DNA of 32,000 nucleotides from Trichodesmium erythraeum IMS101 (GTDB lineage Bacteria; Cyanobacteriota; Cyanobacteriia; Cyanobacteriales; Microcoleaceae). The translations under genes were made by a program, and so were the position numbers. Under the pieces are notes generated by a model, which was not told the DNA's origin, made no database searches, and worked only from the letters and a program-made list of their open reading frames with translations. The first letter of the stretch is position 1. Every line of letters starts with the position of its first letter. The stretch covers positions 7,050,001-7,082,000 of the forward strand of contig NC_008312.1 in NCBI RefSeq assembly GCF_000014265.1, read 5' to 3'. Positions 1,997 through 21,636 of the stretch are shown here, piece by piece.

Positions 1997-4231
1997 TTAA
2001 GTTTGCAGGGATTTATACAAAGATTCTAACTTAGCCGAAACATCAGGTGGTTTAGCCGTAAAATGAATATAAAAATTACCATTTTCTGCTTTTTTATCTA
2101 AAACTTTGCCATAAACATCCTCACTTTCTTTTCCATCCCAGAAAAAATTAATCTTAATATTAATCAAAGCATGGGGAATATTTTCCCCTGAATTTACTAC
2201 CTGAATTTCTGCTTCTTTTTTCGACAACTTTACCAAACTTCCACTCTGACCACAAGCACTAACATTTTTGCCATCTAAAACTACATAATGTAAAGAAATT
2301 GCTTCTTTTAGAGGCAAATAAATTTCTTCTTCTTTCGGTAAAAATAAATTATATTTACCACCAATACCACCAAGGTCATAAATAGTAATTGGCTTTTTTA
2401 CTCCTTTTGGCATAACCTCTTTTTTACCATTAATTTTAATTATTGATCCTACTTCATTTAAAGTAGTTTCAGAAATTAAAATTTGCCCCCCAGTAGTATA
2501 AGATTCAATTCGATAAGTTAAATTTACTTGATTGCCAACAATACCATATTTTGTCCGTTTCCAGGAACCAATATTACCAACAACAACTTCTCCTGTATTA
2601 ATCCCAATTCCCATTTCTAAAGGTGTCAAACCCCACTCTTTCATTTGTTTATTTACAGGTTCCATTGCCAACTGCATAGCAATTGCACAAGCAACAGCTC
2701 TTGTCGGATCGTCTCCTCTATAAGTAGGAGCACCAAATAAAACTAAAATTCCATCTCCCATAAACTCATCAATAGTTCCCTGATACTCAGTAATTACATC
2801 TGCCATATATCCCAAATAAAAGTTAAGAATTTTCACAACTTCTTCTGGTGGCAAACGTTCTGATGTAGCAGTAAAACCTCTGAGATCGGAAGTTAAAATT
2901 GTAATTTTACGGCGCTCGCCTCCTAACTTTAACCCTTGCGGACTTTCTAATAAAGTAGCCACTACTTCATCGGTTAAATAACGACCGAAAGTTTTGCGAA
3001 TATTCTGAGCAGTACGAGCAATATAAGCTGTAATCACAATTGCTGATGTAATCATACCTAAAAACGCAGGAACAACAGGCAACCACCAGTTCCACAAAAA
3101 AGCAATATAAGTGCTAGCAAATAAAACTCCACCAGCCACAAAAATCGTAATTACTTTCCAAATAGAAAAATAACTAACACTAACACCAGTTCGCCATTTC
3201 CAAGTTGTTGCAGATCCTACTCCAGACCAAAATAAAATCCATATCCATTCGTAGGTATCCCCCCAAATTTTAATCATGGAACGACCATCAATAGCAGAAC
3301 TAATCAGTTGACTAATTAGATTAGCATGAACTTCAACCCCACTCATAGGTTCTAAACTTCTAATTAAGCTACTACTGTAGGGAGTAGAATGTAAATCATT
3401 AAAACTTTGACCCACCGCTCCAATCAAAATAATTCGATCGCGACCCCAGTCAAGAGGTACTCGATCTTTTAAAATATCCATCATGGAAACAGTCTCGAAG
3501 GAGCGACTAGGACCACGGTAGTTCAAAATAATTAGAAAACCACCTGCATCTGCCCGTACATAGCCACCATCATCAGCTTCAAATGGTTCTAATACAGCCT
3601 TGCCTAACTGATATTTGTCACCCTCAATTTGCTCTGGGCTAATATCAAAACTCTTTAAATACCGCAAAGCAATATGAGAAGCAAAACTTAAGATATTTTG
3701 TCTATTTTGAAGGGTCACAAATAAATAAGCCCGTCGAATTTTTTGATCTGAATCTACTTTTAAATCATTAGCACCTGCCCGCTTATTCTCCTCCAAAACA
3801 GGTGCTGCTTCTGTAACGTCCGCTTGTCTTTCTCCCACTACCTTTTTAATTCCAACTATATTGGGGGTAGACTTGAATACTTCCACTAATTTCTGATGAC
3901 CAGGTTCCACAGGTAAATCCCGATAAATATCTAAGCCAATAACTTTTGGCTTCATTGCTTTCAATTTATTCAGCAAGTCCGCATAAACAGCATCAGGAAA
4001 AATTGGTTGCCCAATAGCTCTAAGGTCGTCTTCATTAATGCCCACAATAGCAATTCTATTGTCTCGACTTTCCAAAGGCCGCATACGCATATATCCATCA
4101 TAAGCGCTCCACTCCCAAAACTGTAGTAAGCCCAAAAAACGCAGTAGGATTATTAATCCTGTTATACTGGGTCCAGTTATCCAGACACCATACCATTGAT
4201 TAAAAAAACAAAGAAACTTACTCCATAACAT
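1997..4231 (-). CDS. CHASE2 sensor-domain class III adenylate/guanylate cyclase with an extra C-terminal beta-rich domain
   Basis: 744 aa. An N-terminal TM segment is followed by a periplasmic CHASE2-like region (IAIVGINEDDL, ILIGAVG). A block of TM helices comes next. The cyclase core shows ITILTSDLRGFT, FMGDGILVLFGAP, IGINTGEVVVGNIG and YGIVGNQVNLTYRIE. About 125 further residues follow the cyclase domain. Confidence 0.9.
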   Translation of the reverse strand: MLWSKFLCFFNQWYGVWITGPSITGLIILLRFLGLLQFWEWSAYDGYMRMRPLESRDNRIAIVGINEDDLRAIGQPIFPDAVYADLLNKLKAMKPKVIGLDIYRDLPVEPGHQKLVEVFKSTPNIVGIKKVVGERQADVTEAAPVLEENKRAGANDLKVDSDQKIRRAYLFVTLQNRQNILSFASHIALRYLKSFDISPEQIEGDKYQLGKAVLEPFEADDGGYVRADAGGFLIILNYRGPSRSFETVSMMDILKDRVPLDWGRDRIILIGAVGQSFNDLHSTPYSSSLIRSLEPMSGVEVHANLISQLISSAIDGRSMIKIWGDTYEWIWILFWSGVGSATTWKWRTGVSVSYFSIWKVITIFVAGGVLFASTYIAFLWNWWLPVVPAFLGMITSAIVITAYIARTAQNIRKTFGRYLTDEVVATLLESPQGLKLGGERRKITILTSDLRGFTATSERLPPEEVVKILNFYLGYMADVITEYQGTIDEFMGDGILVLFGAPTYRGDDPTRAVACAIAMQLAMEPVNKQMKEWGLTPLEMGIGINTGEVVVGNIGSWKRTKYGIVGNQVNLTYRIESYTTGGQILISETTLNEVGSIIKINGKKEVMPKGVKKPITIYDLGGIGGKYNLFLPKEEEIYLPLKEAISLHYVVLDGKNVSACGQSGSLVKLSKKEAEIQVVNSGENIPHALINIKINFFWDGKESEDVYGKVLDKKAENGNFYIHFTAKPPDVSAKLESLYKSLQT

Positions 4232-10052: not shown

Positions 10053-11093
10053 TTAGTCACCTGAGTCATCTGCATTTTCATCCAAAATTTCATCATCATG
10101 AAAATTATCATCTACAGCTATCAATTCTGATATTTCTTCTTCCTCTTCTGTATATTTTTCTAATTCAGAAGGGTCTCTAGGCAACATCTTGCCCGATGCT
10201 TCCAACCAATCAATAAGAGATGAATCCCGTTGAGTAGAAATTACATCTGCTGGTTCATGCCGAGGTATGAGGCGCAAAGATGGATTATACAATAATATTG
10301 GTTCTGACTGGGGTTGATTATTTCTACGGCTAATAGTTACTGCTTCTTTTCCTACTGTTTTTCCTGCTATTTCTTCTGCAATACTTGTTGAAGCTAAAGG
10401 TTTTGGTACTAGTATTTCCTCTTCTACAGTAGTTTGTGGCAGTCCTATTTCTTTTGCTGTGGTAGTTGGAAGTACTACAGGTTGCACCACTGTGTCCTGA
10501 ACTGTAACTGCTTTTCCTGCTATTTCTTCTGCAATACTTGTTGAAGCTAAAGGTTTTGGTACTAGTATTTCCTCTTCTGCAGTAGTTTGTGGCAGTCCTA
10601 TTTCTTTTGCTGTAGTAGTTGGAAGTACTACAGGCTGCACCACTGTGTCCTGAACTCTAGTAGTTTCTGACACTTCTGTTTTCTCAACTGTAGTAGTTTC
10701 TGACACTTCTGTATCCTGAACTGTAACTGCTTTTCCTGCTATTTCTTCTGCAATACTTGTTGAAGCTAAAGGTTTTGGTACTAGTATTTCCTCTTCTGCA
10801 GTAGTTTGTGGCAGTCCTATTTCTTTTGCTGTAGTAGTTGGAAGTACTACAGGTTGCACCACTGTGTCCTGAACTCTAGTAGTTTCTGACACTTCTGTGT
10901 TCTCAACTGTAGTAGTTTCTGACACTTCTGTGTTCTCAACTGTAGTACTAGTTTCTGGCACTCGAAATTGTGTTACTGTTTCCTGTGGTGTAGTAGTTGA
11001 TGGTCCTACAGGTGGTGCCACTGTTTCTTCTACTGAGTTAGTTTGTGACTCTGCAGTTTGTGGTATAATGTTTGTTTGTTGTTTTTCTTCCAT
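10053..11093 (-). CDS. DUF3134-like protein with a long N-terminal T/E/V-rich tandem-repeat extension
   Basis: The C-terminal ~90 aa (LYNPSLRLIPRHEPADVISTQRDSSLIDWLEASGKML...EEEEISELIAVDD, acidic tail) match my memory of the small cyanobacterial DUF3134 family. The preceding ~250 aa are repeats. The gene lies directly upstream of mraY on the same strand. Confidence 0.65.
   Translation of the reverse strand: MEEKQQTNIIPQTAESQTNSVEETVAPPVGPSTTTPQETVTQFRVPETSTTVENTEVSETTTVENTEVSETTRVQDTVVQPVVLPTTTAKEIGLPQTTAEEEILVPKPLASTSIAEEIAGKAVTVQDTEVSETTTVEKTEVSETTRVQDTVVQPVVLPTTTAKEIGLPQTTAEEEILVPKPLASTSIAEEIAGKAVTVQDTVVQPVVLPTTTAKEIGLPQTTVEEEILVPKPLASTSIAEEIAGKTVGKEAVTISRRNNQPQSEPILLYNPSLRLIPRHEPADVISTQRDSSLIDWLEASGKMLPRDPSELEKYTEEEEEISELIAVDDNFHDDEILDENADDSGD
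10350..10955 (-). repeat. Intragenic tandem repeats (units of 153 and 219 bp, with nested 33-bp sub-repeats)
   Basis: The string ttcctgctatttcttctgcaatacttgttgaagctaaaggttttggtactagtatttcctcttct recurs at 10361, 10514 and 10733, giving offsets of 153 and 219 bp. tagtttctgacacttctgt recurs at 33-bp spacing at 10661/10694 and 10880/10913. The copies are nearly identical. Confidence 0.9.
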
Positions 11094-12579: not shown

Positions 12580-13164
12580 ATGATAGAAAAATCTCAATTA
12601 ATTGAAATACTTACAGGGAAAAATCGTGGTTTACTAGCAAGTAAAAATGATCACGAAGAAATTTTGGGGGCGATCGCTCAGTTAGAAGAAAAGAATCCTC
12701 ATCCCCACCCATTGGAAAAAAAAGAATTATTGAATGGTAACTGGAGGTTACTTTATACTACTAGCCAAGAATTACTACGAATTGACAACTTTCCTCTCCT
12801 GAAACTAGGTGAAATTTATCAATGTATTCGACTTCAAGATCAAGCAATATATAATATTGCTGAAGTATATGGTAAACCATTTTTAGAAGGAATTGTAAGT
12901 GTTGTTGCTCAGTTCAAACCTGTTTGTGAAAAACGAGTAAATGTTAAATTTAATCGTTCAATTTTAGGTTTGCAAAGCTTGATTGGTTATCAATCACCTA
13001 ACAAATTAATTTCGGAAATAGAATCAGGAAAAAAATTTACTGCTATTGATTTTAATATACAAAATCGCGAACAAAAGGGATGGTTAGATATTACATATTT
13101 AGATGAAAACTTACGCATTGGCAGAGGCAACCAAGGAAATGTATTTGTACTAATTAAAGTATAA
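12580..13164 (+). CDS. PAP/fibrillin family protein
   Basis: 194 aa. It has RGLLAS...I..L...NP and LLNGNWRLLYTTS, with a C-terminal LDITYLDENLRIGRGNQGNVFVL block, all characteristic of plastoglobule/fibrillin-type lipid-associated proteins. Confidence 0.85.
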   Translation: MIEKSQLIEILTGKNRGLLASKNDHEEILGAIAQLEEKNPHPHPLEKKELLNGNWRLLYTTSQELLRIDNFPLLKLGEIYQCIRLQDQAIYNIAEVYGKPFLEGIVSVVAQFKPVCEKRVNVKFNRSILGLQSLIGYQSPNKLISEIESGKKFTAIDFNIQNREQKGWLDITYLDENLRIGRGNQGNVFVLIKV

Positions 13165-13623: not shown

Positions 13624-14181
13624 TTAGAAATCTTCTATTAGAGAAGATAAGCGCTTTAACAAGGGGTCAGATTCTGTTATTGGTTGTTCAACAGGTATAT
13701 CTTCTTCTACTTGGTTTGTTGTAGTAGTGGTTAATTCTGACTCTTGATTAGGTTTAACAATAGATACCTCTACTTTATTAATAGCAGCTTCAATTTTTGG
13801 TAATTCTTTCTTGAAAACCTCCAAAGTTTCAAGATGTTTAGAGTCAAAAGATGATTGCATTTGAGTCAATTGTTCATTCATTTGACTCAAGTATTTTTTA
13901 AAATCATTTAATTGATTTATCTGATTGTATTCATTTTGTTCACTAGCAGTCAATTTTTTTTCCAACTCAGAAATTTTCTGTTCTAGACTTTGCAAACTTG
14001 ATACAGGTTGAGCTAACTCCGTAGACGAAGATCCATACAAAAACTGCCATAGAGCTTGCTTACAGAGATTACTAAAAGTTTGGTATTTGTGAACATTGAA
14101 CTCTTTTTCAATAGCTGCCCATAACTTCTTATCTGCTGCCTCTTCGGTAAAAAAGACTTCTTTTTTCTGATTTTTTCCCAC
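13624..14181 (-). CDS. Hypothetical protein with a ribbon-helix-helix-like N-terminus, a central coiled coil and an acidic amphipathic C-terminal tail (candidate ParR-like partner of the upstream ParM)
   Basis: 185 aa. Residues ~7-50 (KEVFFTEEAADKKLWAAIEKEF..KYQTFSNLCKQALWQFL) have a strand-helix-helix pattern. Residues ~60-135 are heptad-rich (LQSLEQKISELEKKL...). A T-rich linker follows, then the tail EEDIPVEQPITESDPLLKRLSSLIEDF. It is the next gene downstream of parM on the same strand. Confidence 0.5.
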   Translation of the reverse strand: MGKNQKKEVFFTEEAADKKLWAAIEKEFNVHKYQTFSNLCKQALWQFLYGSSSTELAQPVSSLQSLEQKISELEKKLTASEQNEYNQINQLNDFKKYLSQMNEQLTQMQSSFDSKHLETLEVFKKELPKIEAAINKVEVSIVKPNQESELTTTTTNQVEEDIPVEQPITESDPLLKRLSSLIEDF

Positions 14182-14570
14182 AGCATCAGGTCACACTTTA
14201 ATTAACTTAAAACTTATCACAATATCAAGTATTTTCGTAAATATTGTTTAAAAAACTTCTTAGCTACTAACAATAAGAATTCAGTTTGTAATCCCAGATT
14301 AAACTTTACTTTATCCTTCTATAGGGGAAAAATAAAATTTATTTTCTACTTTTCCCCCATTATTTCTGACTTTCAGATAAAGAAATAACTACATATTAAT
14401 TTGAGACATTTACCGTCAATCTTTTAGATAAAACGAGTAATTCAATGTATATCTATTAAGTTTAACAACCTGGATTTTTATAAGGGTTGATTACCTTTTA
14501 GATTTATCTAATTATAGGTAAAAAGTTCCCTAAAAAGGGGAAACTTTAAACCCAATTTTTTAGTAACAAC

Positions 14571-15665
14571 TTACTTAGATATAGCTAGTTGAGCTTCTCC
14601 ATAAATATATTGCCCCAGAGCATTGGCTTCTCTTGGTGGTTGAGCCAGGTGAGACTTGAGACCTGCTTCTTGAAGTAGCTTTTCCAAATCTTCCCGGAAA
14701 AAATCTGCCCCACCACCAGTGAGAATAACATCGCTTACCCTTTCTGGTATCCACTTAATTAAACGGTCACAAAGTTTAGCAGCAAAAACTTTACGCAGCT
14801 CAGGTATAATACCATCAAGATTAATAGGTTTTGTAGCTCCTTTGGGACGATAGGAACGCTGACCTTCAGGTTTGTGGACTGCTTCTAATAAATACAAAGA
14901 TTGAGAGTCTGCCCCTTCAATCTTACTAGCTACATCTTCATAAAATTGGCTCATAGCAAAAGGTTCACTCTTAGAGGCTGCTCTGGCAAACCGGAATCGA
15001 TCTACCATCAAGAAATCAGTGGTTTGATGGCCAATATCAACAATAGCAAGAGATAGTTTAGGTAATTGTGGTTGAAATTCTTTGCCATGATTAGCCTCAG
15101 TCCATAGTAAACTACCATATCCTTCTGGCATGACCCAAACCTTGTTAATTCTAATTTCTACTTCTTCACCACCTCGATAAAACATTTGATGAGGAGATTC
15201 TAATTGGCTAATAATTTGTGCTTTTTCCTTTTCAAATTGTTCTTGGTTATAGAATGGTAAACCTATAACAACCGAAAATTCTCCTTTGAGCTGAAAATAG
15301 CCAGCACAGGCCAAAACTTTAACTAAAGCATCTTCAATTTTAGACTTGGCAAAAGATCGTTCATCACCAAATAGATTAGCTCCAAAGTCAGCAGCTAGTT
15401 GACCTACAGCATATCCATAACCTTGATATTCCAACCACATATCTAATAATGGATCTGTAGGTTTAGACTCAAAATTGCCTGCTCTGACCTGATCTACACT
15501 CAATTGTTTGACATTGGACGGAATAAAAACTACGCCATTTTGGGTTCGACTGACACAAGCTTTGGTAGCTGTTCGTCCTAGGTCTGCACTAAGAATAGCT
15601 TTTTTATTAATATTAGATGGTTTTTGGGTCAGCATTGCTGCTGCTGCTGGCTGTTTAATTACCAT
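14571..15665 (-). CDS. Actin-like ATPase of the ParM/StbA family
   Basis: 364 aa with the actin-fold nucleotide motifs in order. Phosphate-1 is ADLGRTATK, phosphate-2 is VDIGHQTTD and the adenosine motif is LTGGGADFF. Size and layout fit ParM/StbA rather than MreB, FtsA or Hsp70. Confidence 0.85.
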   Translation of the reverse strand: MVIKQPAAAAMLTQKPSNINKKAILSADLGRTATKACVSRTQNGVVFIPSNVKQLSVDQVRAGNFESKPTDPLLDMWLEYQGYGYAVGQLAADFGANLFGDERSFAKSKIEDALVKVLACAGYFQLKGEFSVVIGLPFYNQEQFEKEKAQIISQLESPHQMFYRGGEEVEIRINKVWVMPEGYGSLLWTEANHGKEFQPQLPKLSLAIVDIGHQTTDFLMVDRFRFARAASKSEPFAMSQFYEDVASKIEGADSQSLYLLEAVHKPEGQRSYRPKGATKPINLDGIIPELRKVFAAKLCDRLIKWIPERVSDVILTGGGADFFREDLEKLLQEAGLKSHLAQPPREANALGQYIYGEAQLAISK

Positions 15666-15673
15666 AATGGTAG

Positions 15674-15725
15674 TATTACCTCATTAAAGTTCTTAAATAA
15701 AAATATTACCGTTATTAAGAGTTCT
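15674..15725 (-). promoter_or_regulatory. Pair of imperfect ~21-bp direct repeats immediately upstream of the parM start
   Basis: tattacctcattaaagttct (15674-15693) and tattaccgttattaagagttct (15704-15725) match at about 18 of 22 positions with 30-bp spacing. They begin 9 nt from the parM ATG (15665). A regulatory role is inferred only. Confidence 0.3.
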
Positions 15726-15807
15726 ATTTGCTGATTTCCATATATAGTATTTTGAAAATCCAATAAACACTATAAGTAGAAAGTATATTATCAACAAGCT
15801 GAATAAA

Positions 15808-15846
15808 CTAGGATTTATTAATAATTTACCTAGGTTTATTAACAAT
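15808..15846 (-). promoter_or_regulatory. Second pair of direct repeats upstream of parM
   Basis: ctaggatttattaataat (15808-15825) and ctaggtttattaacaat (15830-15846) are spaced 22 bp apart, about two helical turns, roughly 145-180 bp upstream of parM. Confidence 0.3.
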
Positions 15847-15964
15847 ATACATTTGACCTTTTCAAGGGTGGGTCACGTTTGTTTCTTGTTTCAACCAGGG
15901 AGGTTATCCTCTTCCTTTTCACAAGCTTAATTTCCAGTCTTCCGACTAAAGTTATAGGGATTAA

Positions 15965-16550: not shown

Positions 16551-16917
16551 TTTTTACTGTCTATTGATTCTAAATTCCATGCTTTAACAAACTCTACAGG
16601 GCAAACCCATATAATTAGCTAATTTCTATATATACATATTACTTTTTCAAATTAAATAAACACCATAGTTGGAAATTCTATTTTCAACAAATGTCATCAA
16701 CCAGAGTTTGTTGACAAGATACGTAGGCCCTACTTACCTCTACCAAATATTAAATTCGTTTTACTAATGATGCTTTGAATCAACACTATTTGCAACTAGA
16801 GGCCAAAAAGTTGCCCTAATGTCTATTGTTAAGTTAAATTTAGTTAAGATTATTAAATCTTAAAAATTACAAGGCCTACTTAAGATACGTAATTTTACTA
16901 AAAAAGGACATTTTTTG

Positions 16918-18804
16918 ATGAAAATTTCTTGGAGAACAATTGTACTTTGGACTATACCAGCTTTGGTCATTGGTTTTTTTCTTTGGCAAGGGACATTTGG
17001 TCAGACACAAGTCAATATGGGTAGTAACACTGCAAGTACCCGCATGAGCTATGGTCGATTTTTAGATTATTTACAAGCGGATAGAGTCACCAGTGTAGAC
17101 CTTTATGATAATGGTCGTACAGCTATTGTAGAAGCAGTAGATCCAGAATTAGATAATCGAGTACAAAGATTACGAGTAGATTTACCTGTTAATTCCCCAA
17201 GCCTAATTTCTCGTCTGCGAGAAGCAAATATTAACTTTGACAGCCACCCTCCACGGAATGAAGGGGCAGTGTGGGGTTTATTAGGAAATTTGATTTTCCC
17301 AATTTTATTAATTGTTGGTCTGTTCTTCCTATTCCGTCGTTCTAGTAATGTACCTGGTGGCCCTGGACAAGCAATGAACTTTGGTAAGTCAAAAGCTCGT
17401 TTCTCAATGGAGGCCAAAACAGGTGTTTTGTTTGATGATGTGGCTGGGGTTGATGAGGCCAAAGAAGAGTTACAAGAGGTTGTGACTTTCTTGAAAAAAC
17501 CAGAAAGATTTACGGCTGTAGGAGCGCGTATTCCCAAAGGTGTGCTTTTAGTTGGTCCTCCTGGAACTGGTAAAACTTTGTTGGCTAAGGCCATCGCTGG
17601 TGAAGCTGGTGTACCATTCTTCAGTATTTCTGGTTCGGAATTTGTGGAAATGTTTGTTGGTGTCGGTGCTTCCCGTGTACGGGATCTTTTCAAAAAGGCT
17701 AAGGAAAATGCTCCTTGTATTATCTTTATTGATGAAATTGATGCGGTTGGTAGACAACGGGGTGCTGGTATTGGTGGGGGCAATGACGAACGAGAGCAAA
17801 CTCTTAACCAACTACTAACTGAAATGGATGGTTTTGAGGGTAATAGTGGAATTATTATTATTGCTGCTACTAACCGACCTGATGTTTTAGACTCTGCATT
17901 GTTACGCCCTGGTAGATTTGACCGTCAAGTTACTGTTGATGCTCCTGATATTAAGGGTCGTTTATCAATTCTAGATGTTCATGCTCGTGATAAGAAGTTA
18001 AGTAGCGAAATATCTCTAGAGGCGATCGCTCGTCGGACTCCTGGTTTTACAGGTGCAGATTTAGCTAACCTATTGAATGAAGCTGCTATTCTGACTGCTC
18101 GTCGTCGTAAAGAAGCAATTACTATGCTAGAAATTAATGATGCTGTAGACAGAGTGGTTGCAGGTATGGAAGGTACCCCGCTCATGGATGGTAAGAGCAA
18201 GCGACTTATTGCTTATCATGAAGTTGGTCATGCTATTGTTGGTACTTTACTTAAAGAACATGATCCTGTGCAAAAAGTGACTTTGGTGCCTCGTGGTCAA
18301 GCTCGTGGTCTTACCTGGTTTATGCCTAATGAAGATCAAGGTTTAATCTCTAGATCACAAATCTTGGCTCGCATTACTGGTGCTCTTGGTGGTCGCGCTG
18401 CTGAGAAAGTCATTTTTGGGGATGCTGAGGTGACAACTGGTGCTAGTAATGACCTTCAACAAGTTACAGGGATGGCACGTCAAATGGTAACTCGTTACGG
18501 TATGTCTGATTTAGGCCTGATGTCTCTGGAAACTCAACAAAGTGAGGTGTTCTTGGGTCGAGATTTAATGACTCGTTCAGAATATTCTGATGAAATTGCT
18601 TCTCGTATTGATTCTCAAGTCCGCACTATTGTAGAACATTGCTATGAAAATGCTTGTGATATGATGCAGGATAACCGGATTGTTATAGATCGTTTGGTTG
18701 ATTTGTTAATTGAAAAAGAGACTATTGATGGTGACGAATTCCGGCAAATTGTGGCTGAATATACTAATGTTCCAGAAAAAGACCGTTATGTTCCTGTTCT
18801 CTAA
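16918..18804 (+). CDS. ftsH: ATP-dependent zinc metalloprotease FtsH
   Basis: It has an N-terminal TM pair, Walker A GPPGTGKT, Walker [10 protein letters not shown], the SRH region [19 protein letters not shown] and the zinc site HEVGHAIV. The track starts at TTG 16915. ATG 16918 is the likelier start. Confidence 0.97.
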
Positions 18805-19728: not shown

Positions 19729-21636
19729 TTATGGCTTGTTTAAAAGTAAAATTTGTTCTATTTGCTGAATATCATCATCGACTAAATCAAACCAGTTATA
19801 AATGAGTTGATCGTTATTTTTTTCAAGAATTTGTTGTTCTTTTTGATCGGTAGATTGTAAAATTAGGCGGGTATTTTCTATCAATTGATTGACAGTAGCT
19901 AGCGACTTTGCTTGTCTAAAGTTAGGTATGGGATAAGATCTTAAATAAGATGCCCAATAGCGAAACCTTTTAGAATAAAGTTTATTACCACTGGTTACTT
20001 TATGAAAAAATTCCAAAACCTTAGAATTTAATAAAGATAATATCAGCAAGTAATGTTCAAGTGACTCTTCTTTTAGCAAAATATAAAAACAAGTGCCATT
20101 AACAAATAATCCCTTGTTATCTATAGCAAAACAATTGTGAGTTGAAATGTCTGGTGTAACAATCTTAAGATGTTGAAAATCGGTGGGTGATTGATGTACC
20201 CAAATCTCGTACCATTGTCGTCCAGTTTTTTTGATATAAATACGCGCTTCTAGTTGTTTTTGATGAGACAGTAAATATTGTTGAGTATTTGGATATAAAT
20301 TTAAGTTAATGGGTAAAAGTTTATTGTTTTGATATTTGTAAGGATATAAAACATAGAGATCGCTTTTTTCCTGCCAGTCACAATACTATTTACAAACATT
20401 ATGGCTTTCCAAAAGTGGAAAAATTACTGTTGACTCTAAATGGAGATTATTAATAAAATCAAAGGTCATAGGTTTGATAAAAACATTATCAGCCGTTGTT
20501 TTAATTCCTACACTGATTTTGTGACTAATATCAGCTAAGGTGCAAAATGTATTTTGTTTCAGTTTTTCAATAAGTTTTTGTTCTCTAGTAGTATGAAATG
20601 TCCATATAGATTGATTTATTTTTGGTAAAGCGGTTTTGAATTGTTTAACCTGAAAGTAGCGTTGTTGCCACTGGATAAATTCACAATGAGGTTGTTGGTT
20701 TAATAACTCGAATAAATTCTCAACTTTTAGATAGTTAGTGGCTGGTTTTCTCATTTGTTGAATGGAGGTGTAAAGAAAATAATCTGAAGCAGGAATTTGT
20801 TTTTCCAAAATTAATATCGTAGGTAAAATTGCAGCTTCAAATAATTTAGTATCCCCAAGATCGATAATTTCAATCAGACTATAATGTTTGAAAATATAAG
20901 TTCTTAATGCTTTTGCTCCTTGAGTTGTTAACAGCTTATTAGAGATAATATAACTTAATTGACCTTGTGGCTTGAGTAAATAATGCCCCAATTCAATAAA
21001 TAATCCGGCTATATCAAAGTGTCCACGAGCCGTTTGATATCTTTCAATGTAGTGATTTCGACGTTCTTTTGGTTGTAAATTTTGAATCCGAATATAAGGA
21101 GGATTGCCAATTATACAATCAAATCCACCTTCTGCAAAGACTTTAGGAAAGTTTTCTTGCCAATTAAATATCTTAGGATTTGAGAATAGCAAATTAATTT
21201 GATAATCGGTAAAGGAATGAAGTAAAGCATCACCTTGAAAAATTGGGATATTTACCTCTTTAACCCCCAGTAAGTTTGCTTTATTTTTGAGTTGTTTTTT
21301 AGCTTCATGTACAGCATTATTTTCAATATCAACACCATACAAATTATTTTCTAAAATATGGCGAATATCTTGAGGTTTTAGTTGTCCAAACTGCTTTTGC
21401 CACAATGAACAAAGTAAATCAAAGGCTTTGAGCAGAAATAACCCAGAACCACAAGCTGGATCGAGTATTTTGATTTTGTCCAACGGCGTGAATTTGTTTT
21501 TGTCCAAATAAGAGAATAGGGTGTGACTAACAATATAATCAATCAGGTTATCAGGGGTATAATGAACACCTAATAATTTACGCTGTTGTGCTGAATATTG
21601 AGTTTGATGATTCCAGGCTGAAGATTCTATTTTCAT
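19729..21636 (-). pseudogene. Gamma-class N6-adenine DNA methyltransferase (Eco57I/TaqI-like, with a C-terminal target-recognition domain) interrupted by one in-frame TAG
   Basis: Motifs are GVHYTP, ILDPACGSGLFLL (AdoMet motif I) and IGNPPYIR (motif IV, NPPY). The track ORFs 20386..21636 and 19729..20079 share one frame. My translation of 20080-20385 has no other stop. It reads ...ESHNVCK*YCDWQEKSDLYVLYPYKYQNNKLLPINLNLYPNTQQYLLSHQKQLEARIYIKKTGRQWYEIWVHQSPTDFQHLKIVTPDISTHNCFAIDNKGLFVNGTCFYILLKEES... The TAG is at 20386-20388. Confidence 0.85.

Follow-up and report, generated by a model that had tools for sequence, protein, structure and literature searches.

In Nostoc punctiforme, Nguyen et al. 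named two genes, fcmB and fcmC (Npun_R4472 and Npun_R4471), which encode an actin-like protein and its partner (mSphere 2025, PMC12645912). Cells that lack either gene become wide and round. FcmB assembles into membrane-bound filaments that run around the cell circumference, and FcmC forms membrane foci and is required for the membrane localisation of FcmB. FcmB and FcmC interact, and two-hybrid assays detected no interaction with MreB, MreC or MreD. The distribution of DNA in the mutants is normal, and the genes were chromosomal in all genomes inspected (PMC12645912). Here, we describe the pair that very probably constitutes the ortholog of this system in Trichodesmium erythraeum IMS101, located in a stretch of 32,000 nucleotides (contig NC_008312.1, positions 7,050,001 to 7,082,000) that we refer to as the window. 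Coordinates are given as positions within the window, and features lie on its minus strand unless stated otherwise.

The same system was characterised in Anabaena sp. PCC 7120 under the name CorMR by Springstein et al. (bioRxiv 10.1101/2025.06.27.661541). The actin-like protein CorM assembles into antiparallel double filaments that display dynamic instability, as resolved by cryo-electron microscopy (PDB 9RMI), and MinC clears these filaments from the cell poles. Residues 1-10 of the adaptor CorR form an amphipathic, lipid-binding helix that is essential for membrane binding, and its deletion results in a null phenotype, although the helix is described as poorly conserved in Oscillatoriales. 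CorR further contains a predicted (RHH)2 domain, a pair of ribbon-helix-helix (RHH) folds, which showed no binding to its own promoter or to parC in electrophoretic mobility shift assays (EMSA). A long helix comes next and then a disordered linker, and deletion of the C-terminal helix H5b (residues 150-162) abolishes the recruitment of CorM. No parC repeats are present at the Anabaena corMR locus (bioRxiv 10.1101/2025.06.27.661541).

The window encodes orthologs of FcmB and FcmC

The locus comprises two genes on the minus strand. The gene fcmB/corM (14571-15665) begins with an ATG and encodes an actin-like, filament-forming ATPase of 364 amino acids, as assigned by its curated family model, Pfam and the CorM structure. 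It is followed, across a spacer of 389 bp (14182-14570), by fcmC/corR (13624-14181), which begins with a GTG and encodes the adaptor of 185 amino acids. Both products score above the cut-offs of the curated equivalog models that carry their names. More specifically, FcmB reaches 598.1 bits over residues 11-360 with NCBIfam NF052678 ("filament morphology actin-like protein FcmB"; cut-off 300 bits), and FcmC reaches 118.6 bits over residues 3-185 with NF052682 (cut-off 90 bits).

Among the structures in the PDB, CorM is the sole strong match of FcmB (chain 9rmi_G, E = 1.9e-146), with identity at 223 of the 352 aligned positions (63%), while ParM chains reach an E-value of about 0.01. Pfam assigns the domains ALP_N (2e-18) and MreB-like_C (4.4e-8) to FcmB. 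In the alignment to CorM, the nucleotide-binding motifs DLGRT.TK, VDIGHQT.D and TGGG are retained; ahead of the actin core, FcmB has about 20 residues fewer.

The 185-residue FcmC sequence matches Tery_4592 (WP_011613885.1) of T. erythraeum IMS101 exactly. Since Tery_4592 is carried on the 7,750,108-bp IMS101 contig, the locus is chromosomal. Furthermore, a synteny scan with one genome per species recovered 486 loci with FcmB relatives, of which we compared the best 80, all of Microcoleaceae type. Within this set, fcmC comes next after fcmB wherever the contig extends far enough, which is the case in about 75 loci, and ftsH lies divergently upstream of fcmB in more than 70 Microcoleaceae loci. 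A fibrillin gene downstream of the pair is restricted to Trichodesmium, Okeania, Dapis and a few further relatives. The pair is also present in complete Microcoleus genome records of 6.3 and 6.8 Mb. Three other Trichodesmium genomes carry proteins with 93-95% (FcmB) and 70-73% (FcmC) identity to those of the window, so that the actin is much more strongly conserved than its adaptor.

The initial annotation of this stretch, made from the letters alone, had read these genes as an actin and adaptor module with all actin-fold nucleotide motifs in the 364-residue protein, and had proposed a domesticated, chromosomal ParMR-like system that serves the cell itself, for example in its shape. Coordinates, strand, spacer and motifs all agree with our analysis, and the proposed role matches the two 2025 papers and the equivalog models. 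The description of a housekeeping context free of plasmid or prophage signs likewise holds, with fibrillin, ftsH and mraY in the surroundings and no match to replication, integrase or partition families among the ten large open reading frames (ORFs) of the window that were scanned. The survey of related genomes that it had proposed finds the genes together, as given above, and two further outcomes that it had named as contrary, a plasmid contig and an actin that groups with ordinary plasmid ParMs, are at odds with the 7.75-Mb contig and with the identities of those ParMs, which are at most 26% identical to FcmB apart from four FcmB-class records. Its interpretation is supported, yet already known, because the system was published in 2025.

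Architecture and fold of the adaptor FcmC

FcmC matches no Pfam family, apart from spurious coiled-coil matches. An exhaustive profile search with FcmC recovered 164 representative clusters at 50% identity, and two segments are conserved across them, namely the N-terminal domain (consensus k-s-V-x-F-t...aDq-LL-aiE..l....FSdLCKqALwqFL) and a C-terminal motif, DPLLxRLxxLLEDF. For the N-terminal domain, conservation was seen across about 130 cluster representatives. The C-terminal motif forms the very end of nearly every family member and is present in the FcmC of the window. The helix between the two segments varies in length, and family members range from about 130 to about 380 amino acids. A second, word-indexed protein search, for which a diverse profile of the family served as query, was dominated by sequences from Microcoleus and did not widen the set.

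An AlphaFold2 model of full-length FcmC, with a predicted local distance difference test (pLDDT) score of 68, contains helices at residues 13-28, 31-49, 59-140 and 173-183. The N-terminal domain (residues 8-52; 14026-14160) is predicted as an extended segment and two helices with RHH-like topology. Modelled with 65 sequences, it reaches a pLDDT of 75, with the helices at residues 15-29 and 36-52. The long helix (residues 59-140; 13762-14007) is predicted as a coiled-coil spacer, with block-mean pLDDT values of 75-95 over most of its length. It leads into an acidic linker (residues 141-171; 13669-13761) with seven aspartate or glutamate residues against one lysine or arginine, for which the prediction is of low confidence (pLDDT below 50 for residues 140-170). 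The protein ends in an amphipathic helix (residues 172-185, DPLLKRLSSLIEDF; 13627-13668), the counterpart of the CorM-binding helix H5b. Its hydrophobic moment of 0.64 marks it as strongly amphipathic.

This arrangement of a conserved N-terminus, coiled coil, acidic tail and amphipathic C-terminal helix had been described in the initial annotation, and the model, the residue counts and the hydrophobic moment bear it out. The suggestion that the tail inserts into the actin is in line with the requirement for the CorR C-terminal helix in CorM recruitment and with the family-wide conservation of the motif, and such docking probably occurs here by analogy. The reading of the N-terminus as a strand-helix-helix of RHH type fared less clearly. 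The predicted topology is compatible with half of an RHH dimer, but the fold is not significantly supported, as the Foldseek match of the domain with the best template modelling (TM) score is the RHH domain of ParD at a TM-score of 0.61-0.65 and an E-value of 8.9. Full-length FcmC yielded irrelevant long-helix matches only in Foldseek. Profile searches of the FcmC family and of its N-terminal domain against PDB sequences and Pfam gave no significant RHH or ParR relative, and the RHH matches that appeared were weak and scattered, for example RHH_8 in 2 of 65 members. An hhalign comparison of the FcmC family with the partners of cyanobacterial plasmid ParMs returned a probability of 0.4%, that is, no detectable homology. 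The RHH assignment is compatible with the present results and rests on the published dimer predictions. The proposed likeness to ParR needs one amendment, in that the Anabaena adaptor binds the membrane through its first 10 residues, and not DNA.

Intergenic regions of the locus

The distance between the two genes differs strongly between clades. Microcoleus and Tychonema have about 27-28 nt between fcmB and fcmC, whereas the spacer spans 207-909 nt in Trichodesmium, Okeania, Dapis and their close relatives. The 389-bp gap, which had been pointed out as unusual for a parMR operon, is real, but reflects a clade-specific expansion of the spacer and not a trait of the FcmBC system. Only about 60% of the IMS101 genome is protein-coding (PMC4143802), and because of this low coding fraction long spacers are normal for T. 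erythraeum.

Within the spacer, a non-coding element of about 70 nt (14321-14393) with hairpin arms at 14321-14337 and 14344-14360 is conserved in 16 of 16 aligned Trichodesmium, Okeania and Dapis loci, absent from Microcoleus, and single-copy in the window. RNAalifold predicts 18 pairs for this element, four of them with compensatory changes, and a weak covariation term of -0.95. Rfam gave no match at the gathering threshold across the window, and none at E ≤ 1 across the locus. The element is possibly an internal promoter, a 5' untranslated region element or a processing site. A consensus scan further indicated a weak terminator-like hairpin (14526-14542), located 29 nt past the fcmB stop codon. 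Terminator-like sites are no more frequent than expected by chance (3 found, 2.2 expected), and the combined promoter and terminator scan gave counts at or below chance.

Upstream of fcmB, 17 related loci share a conserved leader of about 60 nt that directly precedes the start codon (15666-15725, block TAATAACGGTaatatttt..TGAGGTAATA). The remainder of the intergenic region between ftsH and fcmB, 0.5-2 kb long, varies widely in length and sequence among the related loci L001-L019. A literature search for transcription start sites, which did not extend to primary-transcriptome supplements, found no mention of the locus tags Tery_4592 and Tery_4593.

A one-nucleotide deletion at the FcmC N-terminus

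Comparison with 17 Trichodesmium, Okeania and Dapis loci revealed a difference at the start of fcmC. In these loci, the run of adenines after ATG CTG TGG G contains one additional A, and the ATG is in frame, giving MLWEKNQKK... (MLWKK... in one locus). The window has a run of six A's (14171-14176), and the ancestral ATG (14184-14186), with surrounding sequence the same as in the relatives, opens an out-of-frame ORF of 57 amino acids. Its fcmC starts at an overlapping GTG instead, which gives MGKNQKK..., with the leucine and tryptophan codons out of frame. A heptamer, A_AAA_AAG, lies a short distance downstream (14160-14166).

The deletion was found in every T. erythraeum-clade sequence recovered. 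At least 22 contigs of independent samples encode exactly this 185-residue FcmC, among them the finished IMS101 genome, strain GBRTRLIN201 and several ocean metagenome-assembled genomes, and in the 90% identity cluster of the window FcmC, 11 of 12 members have 185 amino acids and one has 138. An exact look-up of the seven-A version of the window FcmC in a collection of 15 billion proteins returned nothing, and a pattern scan of metagenomes for the six-A and seven-A alleles gave no match in the collection scanned. We considered a sequencing error as the origin of the six-A run and ruled it out, since a finished genome and many independent assemblies share this allele.

Most members of the FcmC family carry a tryptophan at position 3-4 (MALW, MLWE, MFQW, MFPW), which falls inside the stretch that Anabaena CorR needs to bind the membrane. 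By a crude measure, the hydrophobic moment of the N-terminus is 0.19 in the window, 0.15-0.25 in Microcoleaceae with or without Leu-Trp, and about 0.48 in Nostocales-type sequences. Microcoleaceae relatives that keep Leu-Trp have values of 0.15-0.19, as low as that of the window. Since residues 1-10 of CorR are essential in Anabaena and the Met-Leu-Trp is out of frame here, membrane recruitment may differ or be weaker in this organism. As a tentative possibility, the T. erythraeum clade might represent a natural N-terminal variant of FcmC/CorR, in which the actin would be anchored differently or more weakly, or in which a full-length adaptor would be made only through -1 frameshifting. In the latter case, the level of full-length FcmC would be under translational control.

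Interpretation and alternative explanations

The locus is very probably the T. erythraeum ortholog of FcmBC/CorMR, a chromosomal descendant of ParMR that is used as a cortical cytoskeleton for cell shape. This interpretation is carried by family membership, gene order, chromosomal location, the conservation of the N-terminal domain and C-terminal helix, and the lack of conserved upstream iterons. By orthology with the N. punctiforme and Anabaena systems, FcmB would polymerise with ATP into dynamic antiparallel double filaments, and FcmC would serve as a dimeric adaptor whose last 14 or so residues, folded into an amphipathic helix, would dock onto FcmB. By binding lipid, the extreme N-terminus of FcmC would bring the filaments to the membrane. 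The system would work with neither a centromere nor DNA binding, and its loss would be expected to result in wide, round cells. Polymerisation, membrane recruitment and the function in shape are thus proposed for Trichodesmium by analogy. Four points weigh against this interpretation. The filament, membrane and shape data come from Nostoc and Anabaena and not from Trichodesmium; the RHH fold of FcmC is not significantly detected by sequence, profile or Foldseek searches; the N-terminal Met-Leu-Trp of most family members is out of frame in the T. erythraeum lineage; and a long spacer with a terminator-like hairpin separates fcmB from fcmC, so that the two genes need not be transcribed together as an operon.

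The actin fold of the ParM class and the strand-helix-helix topology at the adaptor N-terminus could also suggest a working DNA segregation system of ParMRC type, on the chromosome or on an integrated element, in which FcmC would bind a centromere upstream of fcmB. Two tandem 21-bp repeats (15808-15850; Tandem Repeats Finder score 65), about 145 bp upstream of fcmB, would be the candidate for such a site, and they are the only upstream repeat in the window. These repeats are specific to the window and missing from the aligned upstream regions of the relatives, and because of this absence they are not a conserved parC-like centromere; nor are any parC-like iterons or repeat arrays conserved in the 17 relatives. 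Furthermore, FcmB reaches 50.1 bits with the classical ParM equivalog model NF010498, far below its cut-off of 417, the genes reside in a chromosomal housekeeping context, CorR of Anabaena binds neither promoter nor parC in EMSA, and the DNA distribution in mutants is normal. A role in segregation is therefore already largely refuted and, in our assessment, extremely improbable.

With its changed FcmC N-terminus, the system of the T. erythraeum clade could be partly disabled or rewired. In this scenario, the GTG-started FcmC without Leu-Trp would bind the membrane weakly or not at all, and FcmB filaments would be less cortical or differently regulated. The six-A allele of IMS101, GBRTRLIN201 and several ocean metagenome-assembled genomes, which takes Met-Leu-Trp out of frame, the tryptophan at position 3-4 common to most of the family, and the null phenotype of Anabaena lacking CorR residues 1-10 all point in this direction. 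On the other hand, the remainder of FcmC and the whole of FcmB are intact and conserved, the latter at the high identity to other Trichodesmium reported above, which suggests continued selection. The published N-terminal helix is itself said to be poorly conserved in Oscillatoriales, and the crude hydrophobic moments are low throughout the Microcoleaceae, with or without Leu-Trp. Overall, we consider a disabled or rewired system doubtful. The frame change could instead be bypassed if FcmC were translated from the ancestral ATG and returned to frame by a -1 slip on A_AAA_AAG, yielding MLWEKIRKKEVFF.... The codons AGA AAA AAG of the ATG frame form a heptamer of the type X_XXY_YYZ, a slippery sequence known from dnaX frameshifting in Escherichia coli. 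A -1 slip at this heptamer would restore the FcmC frame three codons past the deletion, with a product differing from the relatives at two residues only, and the surroundings of the ATG are unaltered. However, the heptamer arises as a by-product of coding sequence that is rich in lysine and in A, and an in-frame GTG, used by annotators, lies 5 nt downstream of the ATG. A frameshift-restored N-terminus, proposed from the nucleotide sequence, is unlikely, and we give it only a slim chance.

FcmB-class actins on Nostocales megaplasmids

Both 2025 papers describe the FcmB/CorM clade as chromosomal only (PMC12645912; bioRxiv 10.1101/2025.06.27.661541). We observed FcmB-class actins on three Nostocales megaplasmids, namely in Nostoc N6 pNPM2 (L089, 3539-5065), plasmid A of Trichormus variabilis ATCC 29413 (L090, 3539-5068) and a plasmid of Dolichospermum UHCC 0315A (L094, about 2143-4044). 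They are 53-57% identical to the FcmB of the window, and the two that were scanned reach 617 and 561 bits against the cut-off of 300. In all three, the reading frame runs about 150 amino acids or more upstream of the annotated start. This extension contains a conserved hydrophobic, glycine-rich segment (MIPLVFGALGxAVGAVAGAF...), followed by a helical region. Between L089 and L090, synonymous and non-synonymous differences occur at a similar ratio in the extension (28:38) and in the core (84:108). The ORF maps of these two plasmids show no evident FcmC-like gene downstream of the actin. The plasmid-borne FcmB may represent an adaptor-free, self-anchored version of the system.

The ordinary plasmid ParMs of Nostocales have partners of their own, annotated as hypothetical proteins of 189-212 amino acids (L091, 2667-3305; L092, 2658-3224; L093, 2634-3272). 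These end in an acidic, hydrophobic tail (FYDETDNMFEDI) that parallels the tail of FcmC, with no detectable homology between them.

Neighbouring genes in the window

The pair is flanked by a PAP_fibrillin gene (12580-13164; Pfam 2.4e-63) and by ftsH (16915-18804, plus strand), the divergent conserved neighbour of fcmB. Further large ORFs of the window encode MraY, a glycosyltransferase, a DNA methyltransferase, a Xaa-Pro aminopeptidase and a ComEA-like protein, and the window contains no tRNA gene.

Two of the neighbouring genes show features of their own. A protein of 346 amino acids (10053-11093, minus strand) carries DUF3134 at its C-terminus and near-perfect internal tandem repeats with periods of 153 and 219 nt and 97% matches. 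The repeats are rich in threonine, glutamate, valine and proline, and the length of the protein and its number of repeats vary between related loci. In the region 19729-21636 (minus strand), the adenine DNA methyltransferase of 416 amino acids is similar to the N-terminal portion of BREX PglX and of type IIG enzymes, and a separate ORF of 116 amino acids follows on the same strand. Taken together, they have the appearance of a larger methyltransferase gene that was truncated or split.

Comparison with known systems

FcmBC/CorMR was described genetically, biochemically and structurally in 2025, and curated models already name both proteins. Apart from minor peculiarities, the Trichodesmium copy is an ordinary ortholog. 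A reading of the sequence alone had recovered the correct biology of the pair. Our analysis adds the clade-specific spacer with its conserved hairpin, the frame change at the FcmC N-terminus, and the presence of FcmB-class genes on a few Nostocales megaplasmids. The wider interest of the system lies in the conversion of a plasmid-partition machine into a second cytoskeleton for cell shape, with a link to multicellularity in cyanobacteria.

With the FcmBC/CorMR systems of Nostoc and Anabaena, the Trichodesmium locus shares two proteins above the equivalog cut-offs, the gene order, a chromosomal location and a filamentous cyanobacterial host. The adaptor likewise has the conserved N-terminal domain, long helix, disordered acidic linker and C-terminal, putatively actin-binding helix, and parC is lacking. 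In contrast, the spacer measures 389 bp, where the genes are adjacent in the known system, and FcmC has lost the Leu/Phe-Trp motif at its N-terminus through the one-nucleotide deletion. The host differs as well, since Trichodesmium belongs to the Oscillatoriales, is marine and forms no heterocysts.

The relation to the type II plasmid partition system ParM/ParR/parC of E. coli plasmid R1 is more distant. Both consist of an actin-fold ATPase followed by a small adaptor with a filament-binding C-terminal helix, and the adaptor N-terminus is predicted to have an RHH-like topology. The sequence similarity of FcmB to ParM is marginal, as seen from the PDB chains. FcmBC is chromosomal, lacks conserved iterons and has a longer adaptor with a coiled coil; in Anabaena, membrane binding takes the place of DNA binding, and the filaments are antiparallel instead of polar. 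MreB, finally, resembles FcmB in forming membrane-associated, antiparallel double-stranded actin-like filaments around the circumference, with loss leading to round, wide cells. It belongs to a different actin family, and FcmB depends on a separate adaptor for membrane attachment and shows dynamic instability, whereas MreB movement is driven by peptidoglycan synthesis.

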